Of a stretch of 64,000 nt of DNA, positions 2,539 through 58,534 are shown one piece after another. The DNA comes from a virus (taxonomy: Duplodnaviria; Heunggongvirae; Uroviricota; Caudoviricetes). Every line of letters starts with the position of its first letter. Within the stretch, counting starts at the first letter, position 1. The stretch is from the IMG/VR virus record IMGVR_UViG_3300022660_000063, positions 1 to 64,000 of that record; one strand, given 5' to 3'. The translations under genes and the position numbers were made by a program. A model generated the notes under the pieces. It saw only the letters and a program-made list of their open reading frames with translations. It had not been told where the DNA came from and did not search any database.

Positions 2539-2550
2539 TGCTAAATTTAT
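2539..2550 (+). promoter_or_regulatory. TGCTAAATTTAT motif (candidate late promoter element), copy 1
   Basis: One of 5 copies of this 12-mer; here 26 nt upstream of the ATG of a fiber-like gene. Confidence 0.4.
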
Positions 2551-2576
2551 TAGATGATAAATCAAGGAGACTTTAA

Positions 2577-3824
2577 ATGAATAATAGAATAAGATTAGCA
2601 AGAGGGACTTCAGATAAAAGAAAAGCAAGTGACTTAGAAATAGTCCCAGGTCAATTATTTTTCGAGACTGACACGAATTTATTATATTCAACTACCAACA
2701 ATAAAAACACCCCTCTTAAAAATGCTACAAGTATTTATAATAAAAATTTTATAGTATCTCTAGATAAACCTATACATCAAGATAATTTTGATATGTGGGC
2801 TAGTTTTAATTCTATAATAGATTCTTTTATAGGGGATTGGATTGGAGAAACAGTTGTATCTTCTACTAGAACAGATTTTATTAAATTTAAATATAACAAC
2901 GCAGGTCAAGTATATTTCAATATAAGTTGGAATGGATATTATGGTCATACTATTTTAGTAGATGATTCAAATCCTCCAATTTATTTTAAAACAGAAACTA
3001 ATAAGTTGATATTTCATTTTAAATTTACTCACCCACAGACTACCCTTACATATTATGGTAGATTAACTTTAAGTTCTGTTTCAGATAATGAGTCAATAAA
3101 TGCCTTATACGAATATGATAACCCAATAAATGGTTGGGAATCTATACTTAATTTAAATTTACTTAAACAAGAAGAAGATATAGAAGGCGATTTTGCGAAT
3201 TTAGATTATTCTAAACCAGTTGCATTAATGTATAAATACAATGAGGACTATGTAAATTATGTGCCAGAATTGGCAACTAATGTTGTAAATGCAATAAGGA
3301 ATAATGATGGAGAAAACAAAAGCTTAACTCTAAATAAAAATATATTGAATATAAATAATGCACCTTTAACTAACTATGATTATGACACAACAAACATACC
3401 TTATACAACATTATTATACACATTAGATTCTAGAGATGGTAATTATACCCCAGCAACTTTTTCTGATAATTTATACATAAAATTAGGTCAGTATGAGAGT
3501 CTTAATATTGAATTGATGATTAGAAGTACTTATACTTCTAATGGTGAATCTTTTACTTCCACGCATAAATTATCTTTTGATAATATAAATACTAGCACCT
3601 TTAGTTCAAGTTCTGTTTTAATACATAGTTACAATGAGGGAAATCAACTTATATCCTATATATTTACATGTAGATTATATGATTATGATTCAGCAACTGG
3701 CACTTATAGAATTGATTTTGGTCATGATGCTGGAACATTGATTTGGAAAAATACAAGTGCTTCATCAGACTACACAAATACAATTTCGATAGATTCAAGC
3801 TCAGTTAAAAGAGTATTTAAATAA
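2577..3824 (+). CDS. tail-fiber-like protein (conserved phage fiber N-terminal motif)
   Basis: N-terminus 'RIRLARGTSDKRKASDLEIVPGQLFFETDTNLLY' matches the widespread fiber N-terminal motif (RGT..w...n.vL..GElg.eTDT..l); remainder Asn/Thr/Ser-rich. Confidence 0.5.
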   Translation: MNNRIRLARGTSDKRKASDLEIVPGQLFFETDTNLLYSTTNNKNTPLKNATSIYNKNFIVSLDKPIHQDNFDMWASFNSIIDSFIGDWIGETVVSSTRTDFIKFKYNNAGQVYFNISWNGYYGHTILVDDSNPPIYFKTETNKLIFHFKFTHPQTTLTYYGRLTLSSVSDNESINALYEYDNPINGWESILNLNLLKQEEDIEGDFANLDYSKPVALMYKYNEDYVNYVPELATNVVNAIRNNDGENKSLTLNKNILNINNAPLTNYDYDTTNIPYTTLLYTLDSRDGNYTPATFSDNLYIKLGQYESLNIELMIRSTYTSNGESFTSTHKLSFDNINTSTFSSSSVLIHSYNEGNQLISYIFTCRLYDYDSATGTYRIDFGHDAGTLIWKNTSASSDYTNTISIDSSSVKRVFK

Positions 3825-4411
3825 TGAACAAGATACAATTAAATGGAATAATAAAAAATATAGAATATTCTCATTATATACAAGATATAGAATTTTATAA
3901 AGCTAATCTAATAACTAGAAGAGAAAATGGAAAAGAAGATATTATAAATTTAAAATTTAAAAAGTTTTCAAACCCATATAAAGAAAATCAAGAAATATCT
4001 ATTCTAGGTAATATTAGAACTTTTAATAGACAAGAAGAAGATAGAAATAAAGTAGAATTATTTGTATTTACTTATTTTGATGAAGCAGAAGAAAGTCCTA
4101 ATAATCTCGCATACATAGATGGTAGAATATGTAAAAAGAATAATTTAAGAAAAACATCATCTGGAAAAGATGTTTTAGATTTTATATTAGCAAACAATAT
4201 AGAAAATAATGGGCAAGTATTAAATGTATATTTACCTTGTGTTGCATGAGGGAAGTGTGCTAAGGCATTAAATAAATTAAATGTTGGGGACAAGATTTTA
4301 ATTCAAGGTCAATTACAATCGAGAGAGTATAAAAAGAGATTAACAGAAACTGATTATGAGATACGAGTTTGTCATGAACTGAGTGTAAATACTTTTGAAA
4401 CTTTACAGTAA
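3824..4411 (+). CDS. ssb: single-stranded DNA-binding protein (OB fold) with in-frame TGA=Trp at 4247-4249
   Basis: ORF 3824..4249 continues in frame through TGA: '...LPCVA[W]GKCAKALNKLNVGDKILIQGQLQSREYKKRLTETDYEIRV...'. This matches SSB 'CVtWrrqAEn....kKGs.v.v.GrLqtR.Y', whose Trp is invariant. Confidence 0.8.
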
Positions 4412-4517
4412 AAAGTTTACATAGGAGTTTACTATATTCTTTTTATTCTAAAAGGATTAATAAAATAAATATACTACTAAGTTTACATTAATAGTAAACT
4501 ATTAAGGATAATTTAAG

Positions 4518-4892
4518 ATGGAATTTAAATATTATTATGTACAAACATATTCAGATACACTAAATATAGAAAATTTGGGTAATTGTTTTATAGAGGCGTT
4601 CAGTGATAAAGGTGTTAAAGTATATTTATGGATAAGAACAGAATTAGGCTTTTCTAAAATACTTGAAGCTGGCCCTTATATAGATGATGGGAATATACCT
4701 TGCAAAGTTTGTGATATATCATTCTTTCAAACAGAGTTCTCCGAATCAAAGATAATAAAGAGAATTCAGAGTTTTTTGAATATGCCAAGGTATGCTATAA
4801 CTCAAGCATTTGATAAACAAGAAGAATATTCGGAAGAAGAGAAATTTCAAAAACTGTATAATATTATAAATTATATGGAGAAAGAAAACTAA
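4518..4892 (+). CDS. hypothetical protein
   Basis: 124-aa ORF, RBS present, no motif recognised. Confidence 0.4.
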   Translation: MEFKYYYVQTYSDTLNIENLGNCFIEAFSDKGVKVYLWIRTELGFSKILEAGPYIDDGNIPCKVCDISFFQTEFSESKIIKRIQSFLNMPRYAITQAFDKQEEYSEEEKFQKLYNIINYMEKEN

Positions 4893-5095
4893 TGCAAGAA
4901 GAAATAATAAGAGATTTTTATGGTAAAATTATAGGTTATATTCAAACTGATGATAAAGGAAATAAAGTCATAAGAGATTTTTATCGTAGGATACTTGGTA
5001 GATATGATAAAGCATCTAATGTTACAAGGGATTTTTATGGTAGGATAATTGCTAGAGGGGATCAAGCTTCTGGCCTATTGTATAGAGGAAAATAA
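4892..5095 (+). CDS. small protein with three 'RDFYG(K/R)II' repeats
   Basis: Triple internal repeat RDFYGKIIGYI / RDFYRRILGRY / RDFYGRIIARG. Confidence 0.4.
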   Translation: MQEEIIRDFYGKIIGYIQTDDKGNKVIRDFYRRILGRYDKASNVTRDFYGRIIARGDQASGLLYRGK

Positions 5096-5586
5096 TGAGA
5101 TTTTTAAGAGAAAATTCAAACATAGCTTTATATCAAGAAATTTTAAATTTATTTGATAATCAAATAAGCTTTGGTTATTTTGGTGGGGCTGCTTATATAC
5201 TGAAGGATGGTGAATATTTAAATATAGAGGAAGGATCTCACATGTGAGTAGATGATTTTCTTTATGATAATAATTTAATAGAGACTTCACCATTCGAACT
5301 AGACAAACTTATTCTTATAGACGATTTTAATTGCATAAGAGTAAATGATGGAGTATTAACAGATTCAGATCCTTACATAGAATTACCTACGAAATTACCT
5401 ACTTATTCTCAACTAGATACGTTAGAAAATTGGCTGACTAAATATCCTATTATATGAATAGGTATTAGAGGAGATAGAAAAGCTGGTAAGTATTTTAATA
5501 CAAAAGATATTTTACCAGAAGATATTATAAAAAAGATAAAAAGATATTATAGTTCTGGTATATTATACGAGAATTATAAGATATAA
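5095..5586 (+). CDS. hypothetical protein (163 aa), visible only when TGA is read as Trp (two in-frame TGA at 5245 and 5455)
   Basis: ATG at 5095 overlaps the previous stop (TAATG); continuous reading frame to TAA 5584-5586 with RBS-like GAGG upstream. In standard code this is a gene-free gap in an otherwise gapless region. Confidence 0.5.
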
Positions 5587-5680: not shown

Positions 5681-8600
5681 ATGCAAATTATAAAACGAGA
5701 TGGATCAAAGCAAAAATTTGATGAGTATAAAATATGGAAAGCAATATTAGGTTGTTTTGAAGATTGTTGTCCTAAAGGTGAGTATGTTAATGATGGTGTG
5801 ATAACAGAATTAACAAATAAAGTAACACAACAATTAGATAAAAGAAAAAATTATACTGTAGAACAAATTCAAGATATTGTAGAACTAACTTTGATGGAAG
5901 CTAATAAATATGAACAAGCAAAAGCATACATAGAATATAGACAATTACATAAACTAGCTAGAAATAGTTATACTGAACTAATGAATAAAGTTAAAGCTAA
6001 ACTAGAAGCAAAGAATGTAGAAAATTCAAATGCAAACCTAGATGAAAATACTTTCAGTGGAAGAGAGAAAGAAGCATTTGGAACTATATTAAAAGAATAT
6101 GCACTTAATAATTTAGTATCAGAAACTACTAGAAATAATCATATTAATAATGAAATTTATATACATGATTTAGATGCTTATGCAAGTGGTATGCATAATT
6201 GTTTATCAATTCCTTTAGATGATTTATTAGCAAAAGGATTTAAAGTTAAACAGACAGATATAAGACCTGCTGGAACAGTAAATACAGCGATGCAATTGTC
6301 AGCTGTTATAATGCAATTACAAAGTTTATGTCAATTTGGTGGTGTATCATATACTCACTTTGATTGGTCAATGGTCCCTTATGTAAGAAAGAGTTTTTAT
6401 AAACATTATAAAGAAGGATTATATTGGTTCGGTAATGAAAAGTATTTAGAAGGAATTACAAAAGAAACTTCTATAATTGACGAAAAATATAAACTAAATC
6501 AAGATGCTTATGAATATGCTATGAGACAAACTGAAAAAGAAACACATCAAGCAGTTGAAGCATTATATCACAATTTAAATTCATTACAATCAAGAAGTGG
6601 ACAACAACTACCATTTAGCTCTATAAATTATGGAACTTGCACTTTACCAGAAGGTAGAATGATAACAGAAGAATTGTTAAATGTATCTATTGAAGGTTTA
6701 GGAAAATATCATAGAACAAGTATATTCCCTTGTGGTATATTCCAGTGCATGAAAGGTGTTAACAGAAAACCGGGCGATCCAAATTATGACTTATTTAAGT
6801 TAGCATTAAAATCAACTTCAAAGAGATTGTATCCAAATTATGCCTCAGTTGATTGGAGTGGTAATGCAGGTTACGATGTAAATGATCCAAAAACATATTT
6901 TAGTACAATGGGTGCTTTGAGTGGTCATGAACATCTAACAGTTAAAATAGGAAATGAAGAACCTATTGACTTATCTATCAGAGACTTATTTGATTATTGT
7001 AAAACAGATGATTTACAAAATTATAAGAAAACACAGATTTGGTATAACAGAGAAAAATTAAATGAAGAGCCTTTAGGTAGACATTATCAAGAAAAATCTG
7101 GATTACCTAATCTACCAGGTGTTTATTCAATAACTTATTTACCAGAAGATGTCACATATATTGGAAGTTCAAGTTCTATTTCTAGAAGATGCGCTGAGCA
7201 TAAATGTGCTATAGGCAAAACAGGTGGGATTGATGCAGGAATAAATTTTGGGGATATTGATACAGCTAATTATGAATTTAAAGTATTAGAAATAACTGAA
7301 GATTATAAAGAAGCTGAAAACCTTTATATTCAAAAGAATGCAAATATAAATCCTAGAGGAACAGATAAGAAATATTATAAGTTAATTACTCAAAAATCTA
7401 GGCATAGAGTATATGATAGACCTGTATTTAAAGTTGATTTGAGTAAAAAACAAGAATTGATTGATTTATCTGAATTTGATATTAAAGTATTAGATAGAGA
7501 TAATAAATGGGTAAAGATCAAACATATCTTTAAAAATGATAAATTAAATACTCCGTATATGATGCATATCTATTACAAAGAATACGATAAAGAATATTGT
7601 TTGTCTTGTACTGAAGATCACCCTCTATGGACAGGAGATAAATTTACAAGAGCAGATCAATTAAAAATAGGTGATAAACTTTATAGAGCTGATAATTTAG
7701 AGTTAGAAATAACTGATATATGTTGGCATTGGGAAGCAGTTGATAGCTACGATATAGGTACTGAAACTGGTTCATTTATAGGTTCAGATATTATAATGCA
7801 TAACTGTAGAACTGCAAATGGTTGGGATATTAATGGTTTAAAACAACAAAAAGATGGTAGAGGAAATATTGCACCTACTACTATTATATTACCAACAATA
7901 GCAATGAAATCTAAAGAATGTACAAGAGCTTCAGAAGAATCAGATATAGATGTATTTATGAGATTACTTGAATGTAAAATAAATGAAGCAAAAGACTCTT
8001 TGATAGAAAGATTTGAGCATATCTGTAGCCAATCACCTAAATCAGCCCCATTTATGTATGAAAATAACACAATGGCTGGTTATATTCCAGAAGAAGGAAT
8101 TAGGAGTGCTTTAAAACATGGAACATTAGTTATAGGTCAATTAGGTCTTGCTGAATGTTTACAAATATTAATTGGAAAAGACCATACTACAAAAGAAGGT
8201 ATGGAACTTGCTAAAAAGATAGAACAATTATTTAAAGATAAATGTGCTTATTTTAAAGAACAATATAAATTAAATTTTGGTGTTTATTATACTCCTGCAG
8301 AATCTTTATGTAAAACTGCTATGACTAAATTTAAAGAAAAATATGGTATTATTCCAAATATATCTGATAGAAAATATTTTACTAATTCAATGCATGTTCC
8401 AGTATACCATAACATAAATGCTTTTGATAAAATAGATATTGAAAGTCAATTAACAGGTTATTCTTCAGCTGGGTGTATTACTTATGTAGAATTAGATTCA
8501 TCTTCAATTCATAATATAGAAGCTATTGAAAAATTAGTTAATTATGCTATGGATAAAGATATACCTTACTTTGCTATAAACGTACCAAATGATGTTTGTA

Positions 8601-8776
8601 TGGACTGCGGACATCAAGAAGAAATGAATGATAAATGTCCAGAATGTGGTTCAGATAATATTGAAAGATTAAGAAGAGTTACAGGATATGTTTCTACAGA
8701 TTATCATAATTTTAATGAAGGTAAGATAGCGGAAGTAGAAGATAGAGTCAAACACACAGGAGTTCCTATTGAATAA
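5681..8776 (+). CDS. nrdD: anaerobic (class III) ribonucleoside-triphosphate reductase, interrupted by an in-frame intein
   Basis: 1031 aa (about 300 aa longer than typical). C-terminal glycyl-radical motif 'RRVTGYVSTDY' and Cys4 Zn site 'CMDCGH...CPECG'; internal intein/endonuclease segment (see next feature). Confidence 0.9.
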   Translation: MQIIKRDGSKQKFDEYKIWKAILGCFEDCCPKGEYVNDGVITELTNKVTQQLDKRKNYTVEQIQDIVELTLMEANKYEQAKAYIEYRQLHKLARNSYTELMNKVKAKLEAKNVENSNANLDENTFSGREKEAFGTILKEYALNNLVSETTRNNHINNEIYIHDLDAYASGMHNCLSIPLDDLLAKGFKVKQTDIRPAGTVNTAMQLSAVIMQLQSLCQFGGVSYTHFDWSMVPYVRKSFYKHYKEGLYWFGNEKYLEGITKETSIIDEKYKLNQDAYEYAMRQTEKETHQAVEALYHNLNSLQSRSGQQLPFSSINYGTCTLPEGRMITEELLNVSIEGLGKYHRTSIFPCGIFQCMKGVNRKPGDPNYDLFKLALKSTSKRLYPNYASVDWSGNAGYDVNDPKTYFSTMGALSGHEHLTVKIGNEEPIDLSIRDLFDYCKTDDLQNYKKTQIWYNREKLNEEPLGRHYQEKSGLPNLPGVYSITYLPEDVTYIGSSSSISRRCAEHKCAIGKTGGIDAGINFGDIDTANYEFKVLEITEDYKEAENLYIQKNANINPRGTDKKYYKLITQKSRHRVYDRPVFKVDLSKKQELIDLSEFDIKVLDRDNKWVKIKHIFKNDKLNTPYMMHIYYKEYDKEYCLSCTEDHPLWTGDKFTRADQLKIGDKLYRADNLELEITDICWHWEAVDSYDIGTETGSFIGSDIIMHNCRTANGWDINGLKQQKDGRGNIAPTTIILPTIAMKSKECTRASEESDIDVFMRLLECKINEAKDSLIERFEHICSQSPKSAPFMYENNTMAGYIPEEGIRSALKHGTLVIGQLGLAECLQILIGKDHTTKEGMELAKKIEQLFKDKCAYFKEQYKLNFGVYYTPAESLCKTAMTKFKEKYGIIPNISDRKYFTNSMHVPVYHNINAFDKIDIESQLTGYSSAGCITYVELDSSSIHNIEAIEKLVNYAMDKDIPYFAINVPNDVCMDCGHQEEMNDKCPECGSDNIERLRRVTGYVSTDYHNFNEGKIAEVEDRVKHTGVPIE
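6914..7804 (+). mobile_element. intein (about 297 aa) inside NrdD carrying a GIY-YIG endonuclease domain
   Basis: Block A-like 'ALSGHEHLTVKIGNEEPIDLSIRDL' and block B-like 'TEDHPLWTGDKFTRADQLKIGDKL'. Block F/G 'SYDIGTETGSFIGSDIIMHN' followed by Cys+1 'CRTANGW'. In between lies 'GVYSITYLPEDVTYIGSSSSISRRCAEHK' (GIY-YIG). N-terminal boundary is approximate (Ala1 at 6914 or Ser1 at 6920). Confidence 0.6.
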
Positions 8777-8813
8777 AATATTAAATTGATTTATTAAATC
8801 AATCTTAGCAGGA

Positions 8814-9398
8814 ATGTTTATAGGGATAGGCTGTTTAGCCTATCTATCATCTCCTGATAAAATAGTGGGTGCTTTCTTATTTACTGTAGGATTATTTGTT
8901 ATACTTACTTTTAAATTAAATTTATTCACAGGTAAGATTTGTTATGTTATAGAAAAGAAAAATTATTTAGAAGTAGTTATAACTTTACTTGGTAATTTTA
9001 TAGGAACATTATTACTAGCTTTAATGTGTAGAGCTACACGGTTAATTAATCTAATAGAGTATGCAAATGCAATATGTGAAATCAAATTAAGTGATTCCTA
9101 TATAAGTTTATTTATACTCGGAATTTTATGTAACATATTAATTTATATAGCGGTAGAAGGATACAATAAGTTCAAAGATATAAGAGGTATTTTATCTCTT
9201 TTCTTTGGAGTTATTATCTTTGTAGTTATAGGATTAGAACACTGTATTGCAGACATGTTTTACTTTAATTTTACTTTTATATATTCTTGAGAGGTATTAT
9301 TAAGATTATTAATTATAGTTTTAGGAAACGGTATAGGTGGAATAAGTATAAGATATTTATTTAGGAGACGTAATGAAATTTTTAAAGGAAGAGATTAA
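8814..9398 (+). CDS. formate/nitrite transporter (FNT, FocA/NirC-like) channel, compact 6-TM form; in-frame TGA=Trp at 9288-9290
   Basis: FNT signatures 'GAFLFTVGLFVILTFKLNLFTG', 'GILCNILIYIAV', 'IGLEHCIADMFYF' (FEHsIANMF) and, after the TGA, 'LGNGIGG' (LGNIVGG). Start uncertain: in-frame upstream sequence '..NWFIKSILAG' continues the TM1 pattern. Confidence 0.75.
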
Positions 9399-45927: not shown

Positions 45928-45929
45928 GA

Positions 45930-48182: not shown

Positions 48183-48194
48183 AGAGATTTTATA

Positions 48195-48722: not shown

Positions 48723-48732
48723 GAGATTATAA

Positions 48733-49038
48733 ATGAAATTTTTAAGAGAAGACTTTGGAGAATCGGAAGAATTAAATACTTTTGTATCTCAAATAGAAAG
48801 AAGATTTAGAAAATACTATGAAGTTACTTTATCTTTAAATGGTAATGTAAGTAGAAGATATTTTGCTTTTGAAGAAGCTGCTAGAAAATACTATGATGGA
48901 TTAGTTAAAGAAGCTCAAGCAGATATAGAATATTATGATGGAGCAAATATAGAATTTAAAGCAGTAGAAGTATTAAGAGATGAAGAAGAATTAGATTCTA
49001 TATTAATAGATAAAGAAGAAAATTTTGAAGAAGTATAA
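48733..49038 (+). CDS. hypothetical acidic protein
   Basis: 101 aa. Confidence 0.35.
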   Translation: MKFLREDFGESEELNTFVSQIERRFRKYYEVTLSLNGNVSRRYFAFEEAARKYYDGLVKEAQADIEYYDGANIEFKAVEVLRDEEELDSILIDKEENFEEV

Positions 49039-49051
49039 AGGAGAGTAAGTA

Positions 49052-49540
49052 ATGCCAAATATGTTTTCAAATTACGAAAATATACCAGACATGTATATAC
49101 CAAGTAATAGACCTACTTGCCCACCTCCAGAAAAATGTTGTCCAAATTTAGACCTATGTAAACCAACAAGACCTTATTATGCTGATTATGATATAGAAGG
49201 TAATTTAGTTGGTTATTGGTGGTATTATGGCAATACTTTTGACTTAGAATTTAATATAGAAGGTGAAATTACAGTTGAAGGAAGCCTTCAATGGTCTCCA
49301 ATAGATGAATTTATAGATGGAAAATTAGTTACTATGAATTTATATAATTTTAGAAGAGAGATTATATACACACAGGTAATTAAAGCAACATCTAGTAAAG
49401 TAATTTTTTCTATAGATCAAGAGTTATCTAATAAATTAGTTAGAGGAGTTTATTATTGCTCTCTAAGTATAAGTGATGAAAAATTAGGTTTTGACCAAAC
49501 AGTTCTTCAAATGGAAGATTGTGTGCTAAATGTTAAATAA
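49052..49540 (+). CDS. hypothetical protein
   Basis: 162 aa with RBS. Confidence 0.4.
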   Translation: MPNMFSNYENIPDMYIPSNRPTCPPPEKCCPNLDLCKPTRPYYADYDIEGNLVGYWWYYGNTFDLEFNIEGEITVEGSLQWSPIDEFIDGKLVTMNLYNFRREIIYTQVIKATSSKVIFSIDQELSNKLVRGVYYCSLSISDEKLGFDQTVLQMEDCVLNVK

Positions 49541-49549
49541 GGAGGTAAG

Positions 49550-50065
49550 ATGGAACCAATAAGAATTAGAGCTAAATTATCTGCTTATACAAAAGGTCTT
49601 ATACCTACTAAAGTTAGTCAATTAGATAATGATGAAAACTTTGTAAAAGACCTAGATGAATCTCAATCAAACAATCTTTATTATGTGAGAGTTAGAGAAC
49701 CTAATTCTACAGAAGGTAAATGGGTTCAGATAAATAGTGATTCATTTGGTGATGAAATTAAACTTTTAGAAAAATCTGGCTTAATACTTGACAAAGAAGG
49801 TAATGTAGCTAAGTTAAAAATAGATCAATACATTTTATCTCAAGAAGAGTTTAATAGATTATCTAAATTAGATGATAATGCTACATATTATGTGTATGAA
49901 AACACACCTGATTTATATATAAATGGTGGAACAGCTTTTTCTGATGGCGGCAATGAATATGTTGATTTAAGTCAATATGGGTTAGAGATAAGTGGTGGTA
50001 GAGCAGATTCAATTTTTGAATTAGAATTATTGCCAATAAATGCTAAAGGAGTATATAATGGATAA
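49550..50065 (+). CDS. hypothetical protein
   Basis: 171 aa, AGGAGG RBS. Confidence 0.4.
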   Translation: MEPIRIRAKLSAYTKGLIPTKVSQLDNDENFVKDLDESQSNNLYYVRVREPNSTEGKWVQINSDSFGDEIKLLEKSGLILDKEGNVAKLKIDQYILSQEEFNRLSKLDDNATYYVYENTPDLYINGGTAFSDGGNEYVDLSQYGLEISGGRADSIFELELLPINAKGVYNG

Positions 50066-50681
50066 AAAAATAACTAAAATAATATTCAGACAAGATGATA
50101 TTGCTAATATGAAAGATGTTGTATTAGCAAAAGGTGAGCCAGCTATTGCTTTTAATGGAACTACTTATGACTTTAAAATAGGTGATGCTATTCATACTTT
50201 TGAAAATTTACCAGTTATAAAAACAGACCATGTTATAACAGAGCCAATTGAAGATGGTGAATACTTAAGAAAGAAACAAGGAGATATTTATTCTTGGGTT
50301 ACAATAGAAGATTCAAGAAAGACATTAGCGGACTTGTTAGTACAACCTTATGGTGAAGAATTAGATATGGGTTATAATATAATTGACTCATCAAATACAA
50401 CTAGAAGAGTATTTGGCATTAGAAAATCATTCATAGTAAGCATAAATGCAAATCAAAAAGTTACAAATGAAATAACATCTGATACATATTCTATTATAGA
50501 ATGTGGTGGATATGTAGTAGCAGGCAATGATGGCAGGGTTAGTGTAACATCTGGTTCAGATTTATGTAAATCAGAGATATATGTAACACCTGAAAATAAA
50601 TTAGATATATCTACTGTAACAAAATGTGATAGATTAGATAATTTAATAGATGTTTGGGTATTATATACAAAAGTTCAATAA
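50058..50681 (+). CDS. hypothetical protein
   Basis: ATG 50058 after GGAG. Confidence 0.4.
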   Translation: MDKKITKIIFRQDDIANMKDVVLAKGEPAIAFNGTTYDFKIGDAIHTFENLPVIKTDHVITEPIEDGEYLRKKQGDIYSWVTIEDSRKTLADLLVQPYGEELDMGYNIIDSSNTTRRVFGIRKSFIVSINANQKVTNEITSDTYSIIECGGYVVAGNDGRVSVTSGSDLCKSEIYVTPENKLDISTVTKCDRLDNLIDVWVLYTKVQ

Positions 50682-50816
50682 TGACAATAGAAGAACAAAT
50701 ATATAAAGCAAATAGAATAAGATTAGATATACTCTTAGAGGCTAAAGAAATAACCTTAGATGAATATTATTATCAACTTAATATAAATAATAAAAAACTT
50801 TATAAAGAGGCCTAAA
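50682..50816 (+). CDS. possible small ORF (44 aa) followed by terminator
   Basis: ATG directly after TAA; followed by a weak hairpin and TTTTTT (50806-50832). Confidence 0.25.
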
Positions 50817-50830
50817 AAGCTTCTTTTTTA

Positions 50831-50842
50831 TTGCTAAATTTA
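50831..50842 (+). promoter_or_regulatory. TGCTAAATTTAT motif copy upstream of the tail-fiber cluster
   Basis: Exact 12-mer. Confidence 0.4.
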
Positions 50843-50936
50843 TTGATAATTAAAATAAAGCTTGTTGAACTAGAGATAGTTACTGTATAGCGAAAATTAA
50901 AATTGAATAAATTCAGCCTATTTTATATAGGTAATT

Positions 50937-50975
50937 TTTGCTATAATATCTTACTATCTATCACAAGTAGATGTA
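50937..50975 (+). promoter_or_regulatory. extended -10 promoter TGCTATAAT plus downstream palindrome cttactatcta..tagatgtaag
   Basis: tttttGCTATAAT followed by a near-perfect inverted repeat overlapping the likely transcript start; 30 nt upstream of gene 51006. Confidence 0.4.
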
Positions 50976-51005
50976 AGATATTTTTTATTTTATAACGAGG
51001 AAATA

Positions 51006-52784
51006 ATGGGAATAGTTAAAAAAGTAGACAACCAAATAAAAGAGATTGCTAATAAATCAGTAATAGACCACAGTCAACTATCAAATAGAAATGCTTACGG
51101 TGCTCATAGCATAGATGCTATTAGAAAATTACCAGAGAAATTAACTTCTTTAAAAGATAAAGATACTTATTTAGACACTAAAATTGATGCAGAGATCACT
51201 AGTAGAATAGAAGCAGATAATGTACTTCAAACAAATATAAACCTCGAAGAAGCTGCTAGAATTGCTAAAGATTCAGAGATTGAAAGAAAAGCAAAACAAA
51301 TAAATATAGAAGAAATTAATGGTACAGGTAAATTAAGGTTTTATAACTATGGTAGGGAAAATCATGGCGTAGAAATACAAGCTGGGTTTTTACCAGATAA
51401 TGATACTCTTGAATTAGTAGGCGAAGAAGAGAATAAAAAACTTGCTTTAAAAGGTGTATATGTAGATGGTAAGACTATAGTTGGTACTGGTGCAAGACCT
51501 TTTGATGTTCATGTAGAAGATAAAGAAATAGATTCTTCTTCTATAATATCTTTTGAAATAGATACTATCAAATTTATAGAAAAAATTCATGATTTTAACA
51601 TGCATATTAAGAATGGATCTGAGATTCAACTTCAATATGTAGACGCTGCGGATACTGGTAAACTACAAACTTCACAAACAGCGGATACTTTACATATAAC
51701 AGCAGTCCCTGAATTAGTAATTACAGATGGTACTTTAGATATATCAAATTCCCCAACTTGGAAATTATTAAATATAGATGTAATAGCTACTGCGAATGAA
51801 TTTGGATTAACTATTGAAGGAACTCCAGTAGTAAATGATATTATTTCATTCATTATTTATACTGGTGAAAATGAATTACAAGCAGTTGCAATAGGTGATC
51901 CAACTGGAGTAATTACACCTTCAGATGTGAGAGAATTGCAGGCGGATAATGAAGTTAATACTGAAAATATAAATGAATTATTTCAAAGGGTAGATGCGAT
52001 AGAAGGTGTTGGAGGATATTTAAATCCTTATGATTTTGATACAACAACTCCAGATCTACCAACTGATAATATAGTATTAGATTCTGAAGGTAATTATGAT
52101 GCATCAGCATCTACATTAAGTGAATTAACACAATATGCTTTAGACCAAATAACTAGTATAGATGACCCAAGAGAAATATGGAATGGTACTCGTGTTACTA
52201 ACTTAGAAGACAATCATACTTGGATTTTAAATAATAATTATCCAAATGATTTTAGTTGGACAGATTTAGGTCAAGCATTGGTAGGAGTAGCAACTACAGA
52301 AACATTAGGTGTTGTTAGATCTTCTACAGAAAATCTAAAGATAAATGTTGATTTAAATGGTGAGATGTCAGTTAATAATTTAGGAGATAAATTATCTGAT
52401 ATAGAATCAAACTTAAATTATTTGATTGTGCAAACACTTTTAGAAAGAAATGCTTTAACAAATAAATATGATGGACTAAAAGTATATGTTAGAGATAATG
52501 ATATAACTTATTTATATCAAAATAATGCTTGGATTCAAGAAAACAATTATATAAATTCAGATAAAGCAAAAGTAGATAAAATAATAACTTCTGGTAGTGG
52601 TAATAGTTATTTATCAGATGATGGTACTTATAAAGAAATAATAATTCCAGAAGTAGAATTAGATGATATAACAATCACTAGAAATAATGAAAATAAATTA
52701 CAATCAATTGCAATGACGAATGGCACAGATGTGATTGATTATAACATTTTATATCAAGCAATAAGTACTAACTGGGAGGTATAG
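51006..52784 (+). CDS. tail fiber protein (coiled-coil N-terminus; C-terminal domain shared with 58548..59705)
   Basis: C-terminus '...ITITRNNENKLQSIAMTNGTDVIDYNILYQAISTNWEV' versus '...TTITRNNSDSIQAVGLTNGSVNLTCDNIYDALASDWEV'. Confidence 0.55.
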   Translation: MGIVKKVDNQIKEIANKSVIDHSQLSNRNAYGAHSIDAIRKLPEKLTSLKDKDTYLDTKIDAEITSRIEADNVLQTNINLEEAARIAKDSEIERKAKQINIEEINGTGKLRFYNYGRENHGVEIQAGFLPDNDTLELVGEEENKKLALKGVYVDGKTIVGTGARPFDVHVEDKEIDSSSIISFEIDTIKFIEKIHDFNMHIKNGSEIQLQYVDAADTGKLQTSQTADTLHITAVPELVITDGTLDISNSPTWKLLNIDVIATANEFGLTIEGTPVVNDIISFIIYTGENELQAVAIGDPTGVITPSDVRELQADNEVNTENINELFQRVDAIEGVGGYLNPYDFDTTTPDLPTDNIVLDSEGNYDASASTLSELTQYALDQITSIDDPREIWNGTRVTNLEDNHTWILNNNYPNDFSWTDLGQALVGVATTETLGVVRSSTENLKINVDLNGEMSVNNLGDKLSDIESNLNYLIVQTLLERNALTNKYDGLKVYVRDNDITYLYQNNAWIQENNYINSDKAKVDKIITSGSGNSYLSDDGTYKEIIIPEVELDDITITRNNENKLQSIAMTNGTDVIDYNILYQAISTNWEV

Positions 52785-54134
52785 ATGGGAAGAATACTTA
52801 ACAAAAGCCCTCTTAGCAATAAACTTTTTAGTTTAGAATCGGTAAACTTTGTTACTACAGCTAAAGTTTCTACAGGCACTTATTTATGCCGCGCAGTTGA
52901 TATTGACGGGACAGTTTTAAAAGAAGAATGGCTTAATACTGGAGACATTTTTACTTTGCCTGCCTTACCAACTAATCATGATAGATTAGTTGCAACCGGT
53001 TGGGTGAGCTCATGTCCTGATTTAGACCAAGCAGGAACCTCGACAGTTGTAACTAAAAGAGATATAATGGCTGGACCAGTTTATGAAACTAAGAGCGGAA
53101 TGGTTGAAGTAATAGTTGAAATAACTGAAGATATTGCTCCTAATATAGAAACTGAGGGACACACAGTTACTGTAAATTTTAACGGTACTAAATATTGGGA
53201 TTACGAGGGAGATAAAACCATTACTGACACCACTAACACTCATACTTATTATTCATATGGGACTTATATTATCGCGATTGAGGGAGCAACAGGATATGAT
53301 AGTACAGAATATATATTGTCATCACATGCTATAAGAAAATTGTATTTTACATCGAGTGATAATGGGCCAGAAACTTTAATGAACATAGGTCATCGCTATA
53401 ATTGTTCAAATTTAACAGAACTATCATTGGGAGCAAAGATAAAAAGTCATATAACTGGTCACTTTAATTATGTATTTCCGAAAGCGGTTATATATCCCGC
53501 TGGATTGGAGTCTTTTCAAAACATTTTAACGAATGCTAATGACCTAGTTATTCCATCTACGGCAGTTTTTACACTTTCTGCTAATATCGCACCATCGGGC
53601 ATTATCAAATACCCCACATTAGTATTTGATAAATGTAATACGACTGGTCACTATTTGCGATTAGCATCTATAAGAAATTCTGTTGCAAGGCTTAATTGGC
53701 CTAGAGAAAACTATGGGACAGACTCTATACTACAAACTCTCACTGAAGGAACTCATATAGTTGACTTGGGTTGTATTACAAGTGTGCCAGCGATAAGTTT
53801 TTCACCAGATGAGACTCTTGTTTTTCCTGCTACAGTAACTAGTTTGTACGCTAGTACACAATTCCGAAATTGTTATAATTTAACAAAAATTATATTTGAA
53901 GGTGATATAACTGATGTCGGTAGCACTCCTTTTAATTACTTAGAGAGAATTCAAATTATAGACTTTTCTAAAAATACAGTGGTTCCAACCTGTTCTAGTT
54001 TTAGTGATACATATCTATCAACCAATTATAAAATTATTGTACCAGATAGTTTATATGATGAATGGATTTCTACCGCTCCATGGAATATTGTTGCAAATCA
54101 TATCTATAAGAAAAGTGAAATAAATTATAGTTAA
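52785..54134 (+). CDS. BspA-like leucine-rich-repeat protein (putative receptor-binding/adhesin), locally higher GC
   Basis: Repeats such as 'NCYNLTKIIFEGDITDVGSTPFNYLERIQIIDFSKNTVV' fit the BspA/TpLRR pattern. Confidence 0.45.
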   Translation: MGRILNKSPLSNKLFSLESVNFVTTAKVSTGTYLCRAVDIDGTVLKEEWLNTGDIFTLPALPTNHDRLVATGWVSSCPDLDQAGTSTVVTKRDIMAGPVYETKSGMVEVIVEITEDIAPNIETEGHTVTVNFNGTKYWDYEGDKTITDTTNTHTYYSYGTYIIAIEGATGYDSTEYILSSHAIRKLYFTSSDNGPETLMNIGHRYNCSNLTELSLGAKIKSHITGHFNYVFPKAVIYPAGLESFQNILTNANDLVIPSTAVFTLSANIAPSGIIKYPTLVFDKCNTTGHYLRLASIRNSVARLNWPRENYGTDSILQTLTEGTHIVDLGCITSVPAISFSPDETLVFPATVTSLYASTQFRNCYNLTKIIFEGDITDVGSTPFNYLERIQIIDFSKNTVVPTCSSFSDTYLSTNYKIIVPDSLYDEWISTAPWNIVANHIYKKSEINYS

Positions 54135-54225
54135 ATTTTCAATCATAAGCTCTATAACATGTAAAGTCATTTTACAGCATATTTATAAAAGTGTTATATA
54201 TAAAATTAATTAAAAAGGTAAAATA

Positions 54226-54543
54226 ATGGAACAATTAAATAAACAAGCTTGGGTAGGAACAAAGGAAAAATTCTTACAACTAGCAGAAATAGAAACAAAT
54301 AAATCTTATTACATAACCGACTTAGCTACATTTGGAATAAGTAGTGCTGATATGGAACTAGCAACATCTACTGAAGCTTCTTTATATGATGTGGGTAGTA
54401 TATTTATTTGTTATGATGATGGCATATATTTAAGTGGGCATGTTTACAAGTTCACTGGTAATAGTTGGGAAGATATAAGCTATGCATACACTAAATCAGA
54501 AATAGATGCATTATTACCAAAAGCAGTTATAGTGGAGGATTAG
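54226..54543 (+). CDS. small fiber-module protein, paralog of the N-terminus of 63208..
   Basis: 'WVGTKEKFLQLA...SSADMELATSTEASLYDVGSIFICYDDGIYLSGHVYKF' versus 'WYGTKAQYLALS...SNADMELATTIESSLYKTGDVFICKDSGTYLQGHIYKF'. Confidence 0.5.
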   Translation: MEQLNKQAWVGTKEKFLQLAEIETNKSYYITDLATFGISSADMELATSTEASLYDVGSIFICYDDGIYLSGHVYKFTGNSWEDISYAYTKSEIDALLPKAVIVED

Positions 54544-54548
54544 GATAA

Positions 54549-56183
54549 ATGCCAATATATTTTAATAATAATAAAGTTGGAGCGGCTTTAGAGTTAAAAA
54601 ATTTACAAGAAAAAACTGTTACTGAAAATAATATAACAGTTACTCCAGACCCTGGTTATAATGGTTTATCTTCTGTTGATGTAAATATTGTTACTGGTGA
54701 TTATAATATAGACCAAATCATAGATGGCGATGAATGTGAACTTATTATTTCTACACCAACTGGAGATATAACTATTGATCTACCTGAAGCGTTTGCAAAT
54801 ATGACAACCTTATATTATTTTATTGTAAATAAAGATACGATTTTAATTAGCAGTAATATAACTGATATCGGCGTTTGGGTATATACTGTAAGTACTAACA
54901 CGATTGAACAAAAATATACTATTGGTTCTAGTTGGCGATATTTCCAGATGGTAGGTAACGATTGTTTAATTGGAGGAAATATCTCGTCTTCTGTCGGAGT
55001 ATTATTATTTAATAACACTACCAAAACAATAGAACTAAACTATGCATCAGGATATCATTGGGACACTTTTAAGATAATAGATAATGATTGCTTTATTAGC
55101 AATAGTCTTAATCATAGTGGTTATGGAGTAGGGCTTTTGCTATACGATAGTGCTACAAAAACAATTGAACTAAAACATCCATCAGGATATCACTGGGATA
55201 AGTTTACTGAAATAGGCGATGATGTTTTAATTAGTGGATTATATGCTACTGGAATTTTACTTTATAATAAAATAACAAAGACCTTAGAACAAAAGTATAC
55301 AAACTTTCTAAATTGGAATCATTTTTATGTAGATGGTAGCAATTGTTGGATTGGAAATGATACGGCTGATACAGGAATATTATTTTATGATGGTTCAATT
55401 AAAACAATTGAACAAAAATACGATATCGGTGCTTGGGCTTATTTTCAAAAGATTGGCGATGATGTTTTAATTGGTGGCAGGTCTAGAAATGGTATTTTGT
55501 TATACGATGGAATAGATAAAAGCTTTATTCAAAAATATACTAGCAGTGATGATTGGTATTTGTTTACTCCAGTTAATAATGATGTTGTAATAAGTTGTAG
55601 TTCTACAGGAATATTATTATATGATGGAGCCACTAAAACAATTGAACAAAAATATACTATTGGTTCTTATTGGCAATATGTTCAAGTTGTCGGTAATGAT
55701 GTTTTACTTTGTAGTGCTACAACTAATACTGGTGTGGTAGTCTATGATGGTTTGACTAAAACTATAACTCAAAAATACACTAGCGGTGCTTGGCTATATT
55801 TTCAAATTGTAGGTAATGATTGTTTAATTGCTACAACAACTGCTAATGCTGGGCTTTTACTATATGATAGTATATTAAAAGAAATAAGTAAAATATATAG
55901 TAGGGAAACTGGTTGGAGAAATTTTAAATTAGTGGGTAATGATTGTTTAATTGGCTCTTCGGGTAGATATGGTACGGATGGGCGAGGACTTTTATTATAC
56001 AATAGTGATACTAAAACAGCAACGATATTAAACAGCCAATTTAGCTTATGGAATACGTTTATAGAAGATGGTGATAACTGTTATATTGAGTCAAGCAATA
56101 AGTCTTTAAACCCATATATAATCTATTATAATGCTACAACAAAAACTGCCAAATTCGCAAAATACTATATAGGGAAGGTGTAA
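54549..56183 (+). CDS. beta-propeller-like repeat protein (about 12 repeats of roughly 40 aa), tail fiber/receptor-binding candidate
   Basis: Repeating 'GILLYDGxTKTIEQKYTxGxxWxxFQxVGNDVLIG'; C-terminus 'AKFAKYYIGKV' shared with 56362..57990. Confidence 0.5.
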   Translation: MPIYFNNNKVGAALELKNLQEKTVTENNITVTPDPGYNGLSSVDVNIVTGDYNIDQIIDGDECELIISTPTGDITIDLPEAFANMTTLYYFIVNKDTILISSNITDIGVWVYTVSTNTIEQKYTIGSSWRYFQMVGNDCLIGGNISSSVGVLLFNNTTKTIELNYASGYHWDTFKIIDNDCFISNSLNHSGYGVGLLLYDSATKTIELKHPSGYHWDKFTEIGDDVLISGLYATGILLYNKITKTLEQKYTNFLNWNHFYVDGSNCWIGNDTADTGILFYDGSIKTIEQKYDIGAWAYFQKIGDDVLIGGRSRNGILLYDGIDKSFIQKYTSSDDWYLFTPVNNDVVISCSSTGILLYDGATKTIEQKYTIGSYWQYVQVVGNDVLLCSATTNTGVVVYDGLTKTITQKYTSGAWLYFQIVGNDCLIATTTANAGLLLYDSILKEISKIYSRETGWRNFKLVGNDCLIGSSGRYGTDGRGLLLYNSDTKTATILNSQFSLWNTFIEDGDNCYIESSNKSLNPYIIYYNATTKTAKFAKYYIGKV

Positions 56184-56185
56184 TA

Positions 56186-56359
56186 TGGAAATATATTTAA
56201 TTAACAACGAAACAAATGAAATAATACAAATATATCAAAATGTTGAAAAATGGGGTTATAACTTCGTTGAGTATAAGAATAATGGTATGCGTGGCAAAAT
56301 TTATTGTGATATGGAGACTGAACATTTTTCAGATACAAAACCAGAAATAATGGAGTAGT
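56186..56359 (+). CDS. possible small ORF (57 aa)
   Basis: ATG right after TAA; fills the gap between the two repeat-protein paralogs. Confidence 0.3.
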
Positions 56360-56361
56360 AA

Positions 56362-57990
56362 ATGATAACAGATTTAAATAAAAAAGTTAAAAAGATAACA
56401 GTAGATGGCGTTACAATGGAGCTTAAACCTAAAGTTCTCGGTGGTGATTATAACCTTGAAAGTGTACTTTTAGAAGATGGTACTCAAAAAATGGTTGCTA
56501 CTTTTGTTGGTACTGAAGGTCAGGAGATTGAAGTTGAGCTACCTGAAGAGTTCCAATCAGAAGGTAGTTATGGCATTGTTACATTTATATATAAAAATAC
56601 TATATTGATGAGTACTACTTCAGCTGATGTTGGATTATGGGTTTATAATATAGACACTGATAAATTTACTAAATTAAGGAATGAGGCTCAATGGAATTCA
56701 TTTTATGAAGTATCAGATGGGGTTTTATTATCTAGTAAGTCTTCAAATACGGGTCTACTTCATTTTGATGGTATAAACTTAACTCAAATAGAAGGTTCTT
56801 CAAGTTATTATAATATTAATATTGGGCATACTCTTAAAAATGGAGATTATTTATTTAGTTCTCAAAATTTACAAAATGTAGGTTTATGTTATTATAATAA
56901 TGAAACAAAAACATTAACTCATATTGGTTCAGATACAGTAAATAATTTTTATGAATTAGAAAATGGTGATACTTTATGCTCTTATAGTTCATCTGCAAGT
57001 ATTGGTTTATGGTTGTTTGATTTTAATTTAAAAATAGCGACAGAATTAGACTCTATGATAGCTAGATTAACTTGGACACCGCTATCTGATGGTAATTTAG
57101 TCGGTACAAGTTCTATTTCAGGTGCTGCTGGTGGTTTGCTAGTATATTATAAAGAAACCAAAACTACAACTAGATTTCTAACAGCCAACTATGCAGATCA
57201 AACTGAGTTCACAGTAGTGAAACCTCTATTAAATGGGGATTTTATAGTAAGTAGATCAAACTCAAATACTCAAGGTGTTTATTTATATAAAGCGAATGAT
57301 ATGACTTTTAATAAAATATTTGAAGAAGGTTATAATTTTAATAGTTGCACAGTATTAGAAAGTGGTAACGCAATAATCAGCAGTAGTTCTTCAAATGTTA
57401 AAGGGATTTATTTTTATAATAATACCAACAATACTATAAGTCAAATATATCAAGATGGATATGGTTACAGTAATCGACATGTAGTATCAAGTGACTTGTT
57501 GTTGCTATCTAATTCAAGTTCATATTATGGGACAGGTTTGTTTTTATATGATGATAGTACTAATACTATTACTCCTCTATTAACAGATGAGTATAACATG
57601 TATGGGTTAAACACAAAAAATGGTGCATTAATAGAGCAATATAATGGTTCAAAGATTTGGTTTTTTAACAAAACATCTAAAGAACTTAATGTATTGCTAG
57701 AGGTGTCAACTTATGCTAATATATTTGATAATTTAATCAAGCCTAATGAAAATATTATATTATTCAATACTAACAGCGTATATTCAGCACCATTATTTCT
57801 ATACAATGAAAGTGAACATAGTATAGAAAGATTATTAACTAGTTCAGGTAGTCAGTTAGATAGATACTTTATCAAAGATAATCTTGTTAATCTATGGTCA
57901 AGTAAAAAGAGTAGTCAACCAAAAACATTCGAATATAATATTGATACTAATACAATAAAACTAGTAAAATACTATATAGGAAAAATATAA
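56362..57990 (+). CDS. beta-propeller-like repeat protein, paralog of 54549..56183
   Basis: Similar roughly 40-aa repeats and C-terminus 'IKLVKYYIGKI'. Confidence 0.5.
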   Translation: MITDLNKKVKKITVDGVTMELKPKVLGGDYNLESVLLEDGTQKMVATFVGTEGQEIEVELPEEFQSEGSYGIVTFIYKNTILMSTTSADVGLWVYNIDTDKFTKLRNEAQWNSFYEVSDGVLLSSKSSNTGLLHFDGINLTQIEGSSSYYNINIGHTLKNGDYLFSSQNLQNVGLCYYNNETKTLTHIGSDTVNNFYELENGDTLCSYSSSASIGLWLFDFNLKIATELDSMIARLTWTPLSDGNLVGTSSISGAAGGLLVYYKETKTTTRFLTANYADQTEFTVVKPLLNGDFIVSRSNSNTQGVYLYKANDMTFNKIFEEGYNFNSCTVLESGNAIISSSSSNVKGIYFYNNTNNTISQIYQDGYGYSNRHVVSSDLLLLSNSSSYYGTGLFLYDDSTNTITPLLTDEYNMYGLNTKNGALIEQYNGSKIWFFNKTSKELNVLLEVSTYANIFDNLIKPNENIILFNTNSVYSAPLFLYNESEHSIERLLTSSGSQLDRYFIKDNLVNLWSSKKSSQPKTFEYNIDTNTIKLVKYYIGKI

Positions 57991-58002
57991 GGGAGATAAT
58001 AA

Positions 58003-58515
58003 ATGAGTAATTTAGACACGACAACACCAATAAGCGAGTTTGAAGTAGATGGTGTTAGTATACCTTTAAGCTCAAAAATAGATATATTAAAAACTGATAC
58101 TTCAACTATTCCAGAAATATATAATTTATTACAAACAAAATTTAATGAAAACAAATCCGTAAGTTTTACTTTAAAATATATTGGGTATACATTAGGTGCA
58201 AGTGTGCCATCATACGGATATGACCCAAATGTAATGGAAATAGAGCCTTATAACATTAATTTACAATTATTAAATGATACTCAAAGAACATATCTTCCTT
58301 GTAAAGTAATAGGTATTTCAAATTCAAGAATACAGTGCCCTTTTGAAACTATTGATGCAGTAGGGTCATTTGAAATAGCAGAAAATAACATTTATGGATT
58401 ATCACTTAATTATCAACATGTAGTAAGTGAAAAATATGCTATTGGTTGTGATTTTAATGAACTTGCATTATCAAGTAGTGATAGAAATTATGGGTTAAGT
58501 ATACTTAGTTGTTAG
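58003..58515 (+). CDS. hypothetical structural protein
   Basis: 170 aa, GGGAG RBS. Confidence 0.4.
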   Translation: MSNLDTTTPISEFEVDGVSIPLSSKIDILKTDTSTIPEIYNLLQTKFNENKSVSFTLKYIGYTLGASVPSYGYDPNVMEIEPYNINLQLLNDTQRTYLPCKVIGISNSRIQCPFETIDAVGSFEIAENNIYGLSLNYQHVVSEKYAIGCDFNELALSSSDRNYGLSILSC

Positions 58516-58522
58516 AGATATC

Positions 58523-58534
58523 TGCTAAATTTAT
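58523..58534 (+). promoter_or_regulatory. TGCTAAATTTAT motif copy
   Basis: Exact 12-mer 13 nt upstream of ATG 58548. Confidence 0.4.

Follow-up and report, generated by a model that had tools for sequence, protein, structure and literature searches.

A recurring intergenic motif as a probable late promoter in an uncultivated phage genome of ~154 kb

Gene layout and a recurring 12-mer

The stretch analyzed here, the first 64,000 nucleotides of the IMG/VR virus record IMGVR_UViG_3300022660_000063 (hereafter the window), carries a 12-mer, TGCTAAATTTAT, that recurs ahead of genes and is probably the promoter of late, virion-type transcription units. The window has a G+C content of 27%, all of its genes lie on the + strand, and ~9% of the sequence is intergenic. 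It belongs to a genome of ~154.5 kb that has been assembled repeatedly from animal-gut-type metagenomes, for example as JGI Ga0187907_10000161 (154,576 bp), in which the window occupies positions 143882–79883 in reverse, besides several near-identical strains. No close phage was found among the 50,697 deposited phages of INPHARED, and a protein-based search of IMG/VR gave no match. Between 1 and 38 kb there are genes of nucleotide metabolism and RNA repair (NrdD/NrdG, DNA ligase, RNA ligases, a CCA-adding enzyme, polynucleotide kinase and RNase H). From 38.5 to 64 kb there are almost no family matches; this block encodes a SodC fusion, membrane proteins, large acidic proteins, leucine-rich repeat (LRR) and beta-propeller-like proteins, two proteins with a common C-terminus, and a diversity-generating retroelement (DGR).

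The window holds four exact copies of the 12-mer, all on the + strand (copies 1, 4, 5 and 6 in Table 1), where dinucleotide shuffles predict 0.07 (none of 100 shuffles reached four) and a third-order Markov model predicts 0.10. It is the second most over-represented long word of the window, behind the early −35 box described below. Two further + strand copies carry one mismatch each, copy 2 (AGC...) and copy 3 (...TTTAA). When words with up to one mismatch are counted on both strands, seven are found against 3.4 expected, and since 8 of 100 shuffles reach seven this count is not significant alone; the signal resides in the exact copies, their strand bias and their location. An earlier note on this DNA had listed five copies and put the chance expectation far under one. 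The repeat is real and the low expectation holds, although the copy placed at 50831 should read 50832 and the one at 44767 had been overlooked.

A 14-bp weight matrix was scanned over 82 kb of the ~154 kb genome, namely the window and ~9 kb on each side taken from source contigs. Seven sites score at least 18 bits (18–22), the next match scores 16.0 and the following ones 14.3 or less, a gap that makes the seven-site set discrete. The seventh site (L003:13772; L-numbers designate loci) is equivalent to window position 65898, just right of the window, and lies 19 nt ahead of a gene for a 152-aa protein, after which comes one for a 959-aa LRR protein. All seven copies lie on the coding strand, and six of them are intergenic. 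The motif is found only at 2.5 kb and from 38.5 kb onward. Counted from the motif end, copies 1, 2, 3 and 6 lie at most 26 nt from the ATG, with a ribosome-binding site (RBS) in between in each case; the 25–26 nt that had been given for three of them were recovered from the sequence as 26, 26 and 25 nt.

A by-product of chance, coding or duplication would explain such a word if GCT-AAA-TTT-ATT were simply favored for Ala-Lys-Phe-Ile in A+T-rich DNA, or had spread with duplicated fiber genes. Copy 4 does read in frame as N-A-K-F-I. A metagenome scan with an 18-mer returned mostly human-gut contigs of ~95–100 kb, which look like crAssphage and carry the word inside genes, where it encodes AKFI; the locus L189, discussed below, was the only useful match. 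A scan of IMG/VR with a 14-mer gave at least 120 matches, all of them single chance ones. However, six of the seven copies are non-coding, the flanks of different copies are unrelated, so that the copies are not duplicated segments, four exact copies stand against ~0.07 expected, and the motif recurs independently before late genes in the related loci L133 and L189. These facts argue strongly against a chance origin of the set as a whole, which we regard as extremely improbable, and leave it conceivable for 44767 alone.

A second, contrasting promoter class occupies the complementary part of the window. Its consensus, TAGTTTACTTTT-N13-TATATAAT, combines strong −35 and −10 boxes, and its eight sites precede nucleotide-metabolism and RNA-repair genes; no site of this class was found in the window from 38 kb onward or on the other strand. 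Often the −35 box doubles as the 3′ arm of a terminator hairpin, so that terminator and promoter are fused, and the distant relative L134 has the same early promoter box. Conversely, the early block between 10 and 36 kb is free of motif copies. The sole exception to the complementary territories is copy 1, ahead of the orphan gene 2577, the only copy inside the early region.

Anatomy of the motif and its occurrence in relatives

An alignment of 12 independent sites, of which this genome supplied seven and the diverged relative L133 five, shows conservation at positions 1–14 only, with the consensus T-GCTAAATT-T-A-W-T-R and the core TGCTAAATT(TAT). Positions 2–9 (GCTAAATT) are invariant in the 12 tabulated sites and in three further copies from L189. 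The T-A-W-T-purine tail that follows the hexamer is kept in 9–12 of the 12 sites; its last position, 14, which lies 5 nt after T9 of the motif, is a purine in 12 of 12. Nothing is conserved upstream across the aligned sites, so there is no −35 box.

Being short, highly conserved and intergenic, and containing the 8-bp palindrome TAAATTTA, the motif might also be the binding site of a phage regulator (an activator or repressor) beside weak, unrecognized promoters. What is conserved, however, is the asymmetric left 9-mer TGCTAAATT and not the internal palindrome. Variants in L133 and L189 (TGCTAAATTATA, TGCTAAATTAAA, TGCTAAATTAAT and TGCTAAATTTTA, with endings such as ...TTAAA, ...TTAAT and ...TTTTA) keep the left nine bases only and break TAAATTTA, a pattern more like that of an asymmetric promoter signal than that of a dimer site. 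Moreover, there is no inverted copy on the other strand, and no room for a separate −10 box and leader either at 58523 (13 nt) or at L133:3022 (4 nt). We consider a regulator site very unlikely.

Related contigs were reached via the 750-aa protein encoded at 45930–48182. The close relatives L010, L012 and L258 keep the motif at orthologous sites. In L133, taken from a 138.5-kb contig, five copies lie within 22 kb, all on the + strand, all intergenic and with unrelated flanks; the one at L133:17272 stands after a terminator and before a homolog of the T4 neck protein gp13. L189, a relative of L133, has three copies, of which an exact one lies 61 nt before the tail sheath gene (phrog_23), itself followed by the tail tube gene (phrog_4542), and two variants precede a 60-aa gene and, at 27 nt, the baseplate hub gene (phrog_150). 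In these diverged relatives the motif thus marks true late genes wherever the genes are recognizable. Within the window, the motif stands ahead of orphan genes and of the LRR/beta-propeller/DGR host-recognition block.

More distant members of the group tie it to T4. L011, L134 and L136 carry T4-type portal, prohead protease, capsid, neck and baseplate genes (Portal_T4, Peptidase_S77, Gp23, gp13 and T4_baseplate), a set with gp20, gp21 and gp23 among its members; by capsid protein, the nearest cultured relatives of these distant members are phages of Bacillus, Listeria and Streptococcus, at ~44% identity. These distant members lack the motif, and two of them have other −10-like words before structural-region genes: GCATAATATAAATA in L134, which includes the T4 consensus TATAAATA, and GGCTATAATTAGTG in L011, with a perfect TATAAT, before three genes, one of them that of the prohead protease. 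In a search for the major capsid gene of this phage, started from the gp23 of L011, none of the 120 of 253 matches listed came from a ~154-kb contig, and when gp23, portal and protease were compared by tblastn with all related loci, gp13 in L133 was the only match.

Two non-coding features were noted in these relatives. In L133, a 2.37-kb stretch (14931–17302) has stops in all six frames, 36% G+C against 29.5% around it, and no Rfam match; it starts after the motif variant TGCTAAATTAAT (14965) and a TGTGTATAAT box, ends at the strong terminator before the gp13 copy, and is a candidate for a very large phage non-coding RNA. In L011, a group I intron (18940–19221; Rfam RF00028, 69.8 bits) lies beside a SegE-like GIY-YIG gene, just downstream of gp23.

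Surroundings of the individual copies

The coordinates of the copies and of the other features of the window are collected in Table 1. Hairpins stand directly before copies 1 and 5 and L133:17272, and less clearly before L003:13772, and T-runs follow all of these except the L003:13772 hairpin. Three or four of the seven copies are directly 3′ of terminator hairpins.

Table 1. Motif copies and other features of the window (window positions; distances to start codons are counted from the motif end)
Feature	Position	Strand	Remarks
Copy 1, TGCTAAATTTATTA	2539–2552	+	20.5 bits; 26 nt before ATG of orphan 2577–3824
Terminator-like hairpin with T-run	2503–2536 (hairpin 2503–2527)	+	9-bp stem AATTGAAGT/ACTTCAATT; closes upstream unit before copy 1
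Copy 2, AGCTAAATTTATCG	38529–38542	+	18.2 bits; 26 nt before ATG of SodC fusion 38567–40036
Hairpin	41280–41307	+	3′ arm supplies TGCT of copy 3
Copy 3, TGCTAAATTTAATG	41304–41317	+	20.3 bits; 25 nt before ATG of membrane-protein gene 41341
Terminator-like hairpin with T-run	44143–44182	+	closes unit 41341–44137
Copy 4, exact	44767–44780	+	20.5 bits; inside open reading frame 44192–45058, 279 nt before gene 45058
Intrinsic-terminator-like hairpin with T-run	50804–50831	+	abuts copy 5
Copy 5, TGCTAAATTTATTG	50832–50845	+	22.1 bits, top-scoring; 162 nt before gene 51006
Conserved 160-nt leader	50846–51005	+	folds at z = −4.4; hairpin 50946–50981 with T-run just before RBS of 51006
Copy 6, exact	58523–58536	+	20.5 bits; 13 nt before ATG of 58548–59705
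DGR	59915–62993	+	target gene 59915–61243 with C-terminal variable region
DGR parts	61271–61699; from 61700; 62127–62993		Avd-like gene; template-like non-coding stretch; reverse transcriptase (PF00078)
Early/middle promoters, GTTT[AG]C..-N-TATAAT	10423, 10834, 13344, 15648, 20800, 26966, 29264, 35658 (10423–35687)	+	eight intergenic sites
Terminator-promoter cassettes	26940–26975, 29245–29275	+	hairpin AAAGTAAACTA...TAGTTTACTTT, −35 box as 3′ arm
In-frame TGA codons, examples	4247–4249, 43438–43440, 45484–45486		others too, also in L010 and L012

Gene 2577 behind copy 1 is followed by an SSB-like gene, 3824–4411, in one unit. A homolog search with 2577 found only itself, and its AlphaFold model (pLDDT 34.5) is unusable. 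Cassette exchange at 2577 was rejected, as the strains differ by 1–2 indels only. Copy 2 heads the unit that opens with the SodC fusion, whose SodC domain matches PHROG 1975 and Pfam Sod_Cu (1e-31), and the A variant of this copy is kept at the orthologous site L010:319. Copy 3, conserved at L010:4521 and L012:4273, heads the unit of 41341; the stem of the hairpin that overlaps it is kept in two relatives via a compensatory G-C to A-T double change. The downstream genes had previously been labeled a SodC fusion, a membrane protein and fibers. The SodC domain and, in the translation of 41341, hydrophobic stretches of the membrane-protein type bear out the first two labels, with no family match for 41341; for the fiber labels of 2577, 51006 and 58548, PHROG and Pfam scans gave no family support.

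Copy 4 is conserved in L010, L012 and L258, that is, in four genomes with the window, but the surrounding codons are equally conserved, which makes a synonymous-site test at 44767 uninformative. It may be an internal promoter for 45058–50681 or a chance match encoding Ala-Lys-Phe-Ile. Copy 5 heads the host-recognition block 51006–58515 and has orthologs at L010:15851 and L258:10411. Where the window has the hairpin 50804–50831, L010 and L258 carry hairpins of other sequence. The leader that follows copy 5 is near-identical in the window and L010 while the neighboring genes diverge, and in L257 a different hairpin with a T-run replaces the leader-end hairpin at the same place; the diverged sequences are too few for covariation in this leader. 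Judging from its fold and conservation, the leader may act as an attenuator or antitermination site, or may be a small RNA. The unit headed by copy 6 runs into the DGR.

This setting bears on an RNA-level role for the motif, as an endoribonuclease processing site, a leader element that raises or lowers translation of late genes, or a site where an antitermination factor loads onto long read-through transcripts. In favor of such a role, the motif is confined to one strand and close to ribosome-binding sites, several copies come just after hairpins, where a read-through transcript could be cut or modified, and the copy at 50832 is followed by the conserved structured leader with its terminator-like hairpin. 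Yet start codons lie anywhere from 4 to 162 nt away, a spread that does not fit a translational operator or enhancer, and the motif has no conserved secondary structure of its own. An RNA-level role would also leave the late block from 38.5 to 66 kb with no recognizable promoter, since it contains no early-class site and sigma-70-like matches number 104 against 130 in shuffled sequence. We regard this role as improbable.

Several further observations concern the same block. A ~300-nt non-coding region upstream of copy 2 (38260–38566) is better conserved relative to L010 than the adjacent sequence and dense in palindromes and hairpins (TATATAAGCGCTTATATA, TATAGAGACTTAAAGTCTCTATA and GTAAACTCTAAACGAGTTTAC, plus several GTAAAC/GTTTAC boxes); at the early/late boundary, it may be a control region or an origin. 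Enzyme-like domains of the late block comprise the Cu/Zn superoxide dismutase, fused to a long C-terminal region (38567–40036; 874 aa in L012), the large acidic protein 41965–43689, whose L012 ortholog faintly matches Pfam Ferritin, and an inorganic pyrophosphatase (48195–48722). These proteins might be packaged or injected.

In this phage, TGA codes for tryptophan. All seven apparent TGA stops of the window run on into in-frame coding sequence, and window TGA codons align with W (TGG) in relatives and vice versa (for example, EEW/DAIQ and SDYW/GY). Gene calls under the standard code are therefore split at 3824–4411, 5086–5586, 8739–9398, 41965–43689, 44192–45058 and 45058–45927. Left of the window start, by ~9.0–7.4 kb and ~4.1 kb, respectively, lie a cluster of 12 tRNAs (L007:367–1926) and a 97-nt tRNA-like gene with the anticodon UCA (L007:5205–5301), which ARAGORN labels 'SeC' and the Rfam tRNA model scores at 38 bits. 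The latter adjoins a DUF2828/DUF7788 gene inside a 550-nt non-coding stretch, and the best sub-threshold match to the motif (16 bits, L007:4631) falls ~575 nt upstream of it. This gene could be a TGA suppressor; an alternative, given its neighbor and its non-coding setting, is a Y-RNA-like tRNA mimic.

In the early part of the window, three paralogs (19895–20767, 26289–26882 and 35076–35630) have the N-terminal motif (F)ETNSSS[MYI]HSL and no family match. The NrdD gene (5681–8776) contains an insertion of ~300 aa between its two conserved halves (residues ~412–718), with a faint GIY-YIG signal, which is probably an intein or a homing-endonuclease insertion; no other segment resembles known phages at the nucleotide level (here 77%, to Thomasclavelia phages). 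An Rfam scan of the window gave no match.

The late-promoter reading and known promoter systems

From the sequence of the motif, its strand, position, terminator context, territory and conservation we infer that it is probably the promoter of late, virion transcription units. This reading, first put forward in the earlier note, was supported by every sequence-level test run, and late status for gene 2577 and the SodC fusion would follow from the motif. The TGCTAAATT(T-A-W-T-R) element would act as a single −10-type box without a −35 box. Once the early period is over, a phage factor would alter the specificity of RNA polymerase, which would then recognize the element and start transcription a few bases downstream; whether a phage-specified factor reads the motif at all we judge to be evenly balanced, and a small sigma similar to T4 gp55, or a different phage sigma, would be the most likely candidate. 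Transcription is predicted to begin either at position 14 of the motif, its invariant purine, or at position 15; aligning CTAAATT like the box of the Aeromonas phage Aeh1 would place the start at position 15, with leaders of ~10–25 nt. The mRNA leaders would be very short, their 5′ ends coinciding with the Shine-Dalgarno sequence or lying just upstream of it. Each copy would open one unit, and most units would end in a hairpin terminator just before the next copy; the predicted units are 2577–4411, 38567–41265, 41341–44137, perhaps 45058–50681, 51006–58515, 58548 onward, and one at ~65.9 kb.

Several findings weigh against this reading. At 58523 the predicted start falls on the first Shine-Dalgarno bases, at L133:3022 it leaves almost no leader, and gene 44192 comes after a terminator with no motif in between. 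L257, a fairly close relative, has no copy in 12 kb, including the ortholog of the 50832 site; together with the other words of the distant members, this indicates that the signal turns over within the group. The window has no T4 hallmark structural gene, and its relatedness to T4 rests on relatives tied to it by one common protein and the motif. No sigma, gp55, gp33, gp45, AsiA-like protein or RNA polymerase was found among the ~70 open reading frames (ORFs) of the window compared with PHROGs and/or Pfam, no homolog of gp55, gp33 or another sigma was found in the window and its 18 kb of flanks (82 of the 154.5 kb of this genome) or in related loci (~230 kb in total), and phmmer with T4 gp55 gave no match against all ORFs of 12 loci. 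Proteins annotated as 'sigma' in the Bacillus phage HSE3 were also used as queries and discarded, as they gave no match and the annotations look doubtful. As to the likeness to T4-type promoters read by a phage sigma that had been pointed out, the link to T4 goes beyond resemblance, given the T4-type genes in relatives and the Aeh1 box CTAAATA, while the gp55-like sigma did not appear in the ~230 kb searched. Lastly, the motif fits an extended −10 promoter of the host sigma equally well.

That last point defines a tentative alternative, which we consider possible though rather unlikely, in which the motif has the same function but is read by the host primary sigma as T-15 G-14 C-13 followed by TAAATT. 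Promoters of the TGn/−10 type work without −35 contact, and the T4 anti-sigma AsiA does not affect them (PMC2988021). The register TGnTAnnnT is matched exactly (TGC-TAAATT), without a −35 box: a single base separates TG from a hexamer in which T-12, A-11 and T-7 are kept, with G in 15 of 15 copies, T in 14 of 15, and an invariant hexamer. The early promoters have a strong −35 box without TGn and the motif has TGn without a −35 box, so the two classes would respond oppositely to a region-4 blocker, and such a blocker could give an early-to-late switch with the host sigma alone. The timing would come from an anti-sigma of the AsiA kind that blocks −35 recognition, silencing early promoters and sparing TGn/−10 ones, or from replication-coupled effects. 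The failure to find a phage sigma in the loci scanned and the perfect TATAAT of GGCTATAATTAGTG before the prohead protease gene of L011 speak for this version. In ordinary TGn/−10 promoters, however, −13 and the discriminator are free, whereas here C-13 is invariant and TAWT-purine is strongly conserved; the ~20 bits of information are typical of a dedicated phage signal. Moreover, the hexamer of each copy shares 4 of 6 positions with TATAAT, never more, and shows no drift toward consensus, the signal is confined to one phage gene class, and no AsiA-like gene was identified among the ORFs scanned.

A more elaborate form of the late-promoter reading, which we think unlikely, would be a new late-promoter specificity in a T4-related rumen/gut phage clade with TGA=Trp, read by a factor without detectable similarity to gp55. 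Antitermination at the terminator-ended leader (50832–51005) and in-frame TGA codons in several motif-driven genes would add further layers, amounting to a multi-step gate, and promoter specificity would have shifted in L257, L134 and L011, where −10-like words are different or missing.

If it is a late promoter, the motif offers a transcription map for the late half of an abundant uncultivated phage of ~154 kb in which hardly any virion gene belongs to a recognizable family. The genes behind it, namely the orphan 2577, the SodC fusion, the large acidic proteins and the DGR-diversified receptor-binding block, would provisionally be late or virion genes. The −10-only late promoters of T4-related phages would extend to a TGA=Trp branch whose nearest cultured kin by capsid infect Bacillus, Listeria and Streptococcus, and the motif could serve as a simple clade marker for metagenomes.

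T4 late transcription relies on gp55 with the gp33 co-activator and the gp45 sliding clamp; T4-type late transcripts start ~6 nt downstream of the box, and their synthesis depends on DNA replication. The T4 late promoter is the 8-mer TATAAATA, spanning −13 to −6, and the small sigma gp55 that reads it makes contact with the −10 region only (PMC3184105); Aeh1, a T4-type phage of Aeromonas, uses CTAAATA starting at −12 with a diverged gp55 (PMC1524935). Our motif resembles these in being a single short A+T-rich −10-type box without a −35 box, with ~8–9 bp very highly conserved, placed a few tens of nucleotides or less before virion genes and often after terminators, in a T4-related phage group. 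It has the core (C)TAAAT in common with T4 and, with the C included, with Aeh1: GCTAAATT matches TATAAATA at 5 of 8 positions and Aeh1 CTAAATA at 6 of 7 (A/TATAAATA is another documented close variant), and has TG upstream and TTAT downstream as extras. It differs from T4 in that upstream TG, in a T rather than an A after TAAAT, in the conserved tail and in its length of 12–14 bp against 8, and further in that the ORFs scanned held no homolog of gp55, gp33 or gp45 and the phage reads TGA as Trp. The T4 word itself is not supported as a late promoter of the window, as TATAAATA has 24 copies on the + strand, mostly over early −10 regions or within genes, with no preference for positions upstream of late genes.

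Other systems are less close. In the Bacillus phage SPO1, late promoters have two parts, a −35-like and a −10-like box, and are recognized by the phage sigma gp34 together with gp33. Likeness to SPO1 lies in a low-G+C Gram-positive phage setting, in the replacement of promoter specificity between classes and in early promoters that look like those of host sigma-A; the motif differs in being a single box, and the loci scanned yielded no homologous sigma. Single-subunit RNA polymerases of the T7/N4 kind use promoters with a block of ~18–23 bp spanning the start and come with a phage RNA polymerase gene. A promoter of that type was rejected here, as only 9–14 bp are conserved and no RNA polymerase match occurred among the ORFs scanned. 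Late control in lambda combines the promoter PR′, the terminator tR′ and the antiterminator Q. The copy at 50832 is alike in its succession of promoter, short structured leader, terminator-like hairpin and long structural operon, and differs in that a leader of this sort follows one of the seven copies and that no Q-like gene or qut-like site was identified. A full-text literature search for GCTAAATTTA returned, among the titles listed, unrelated primers and sequences only. This consensus is undescribed; the promoter of a temporal class is nevertheless a known kind of phage signal, and one that is unsurprising here, since phages with temporal classes are expected to have it.

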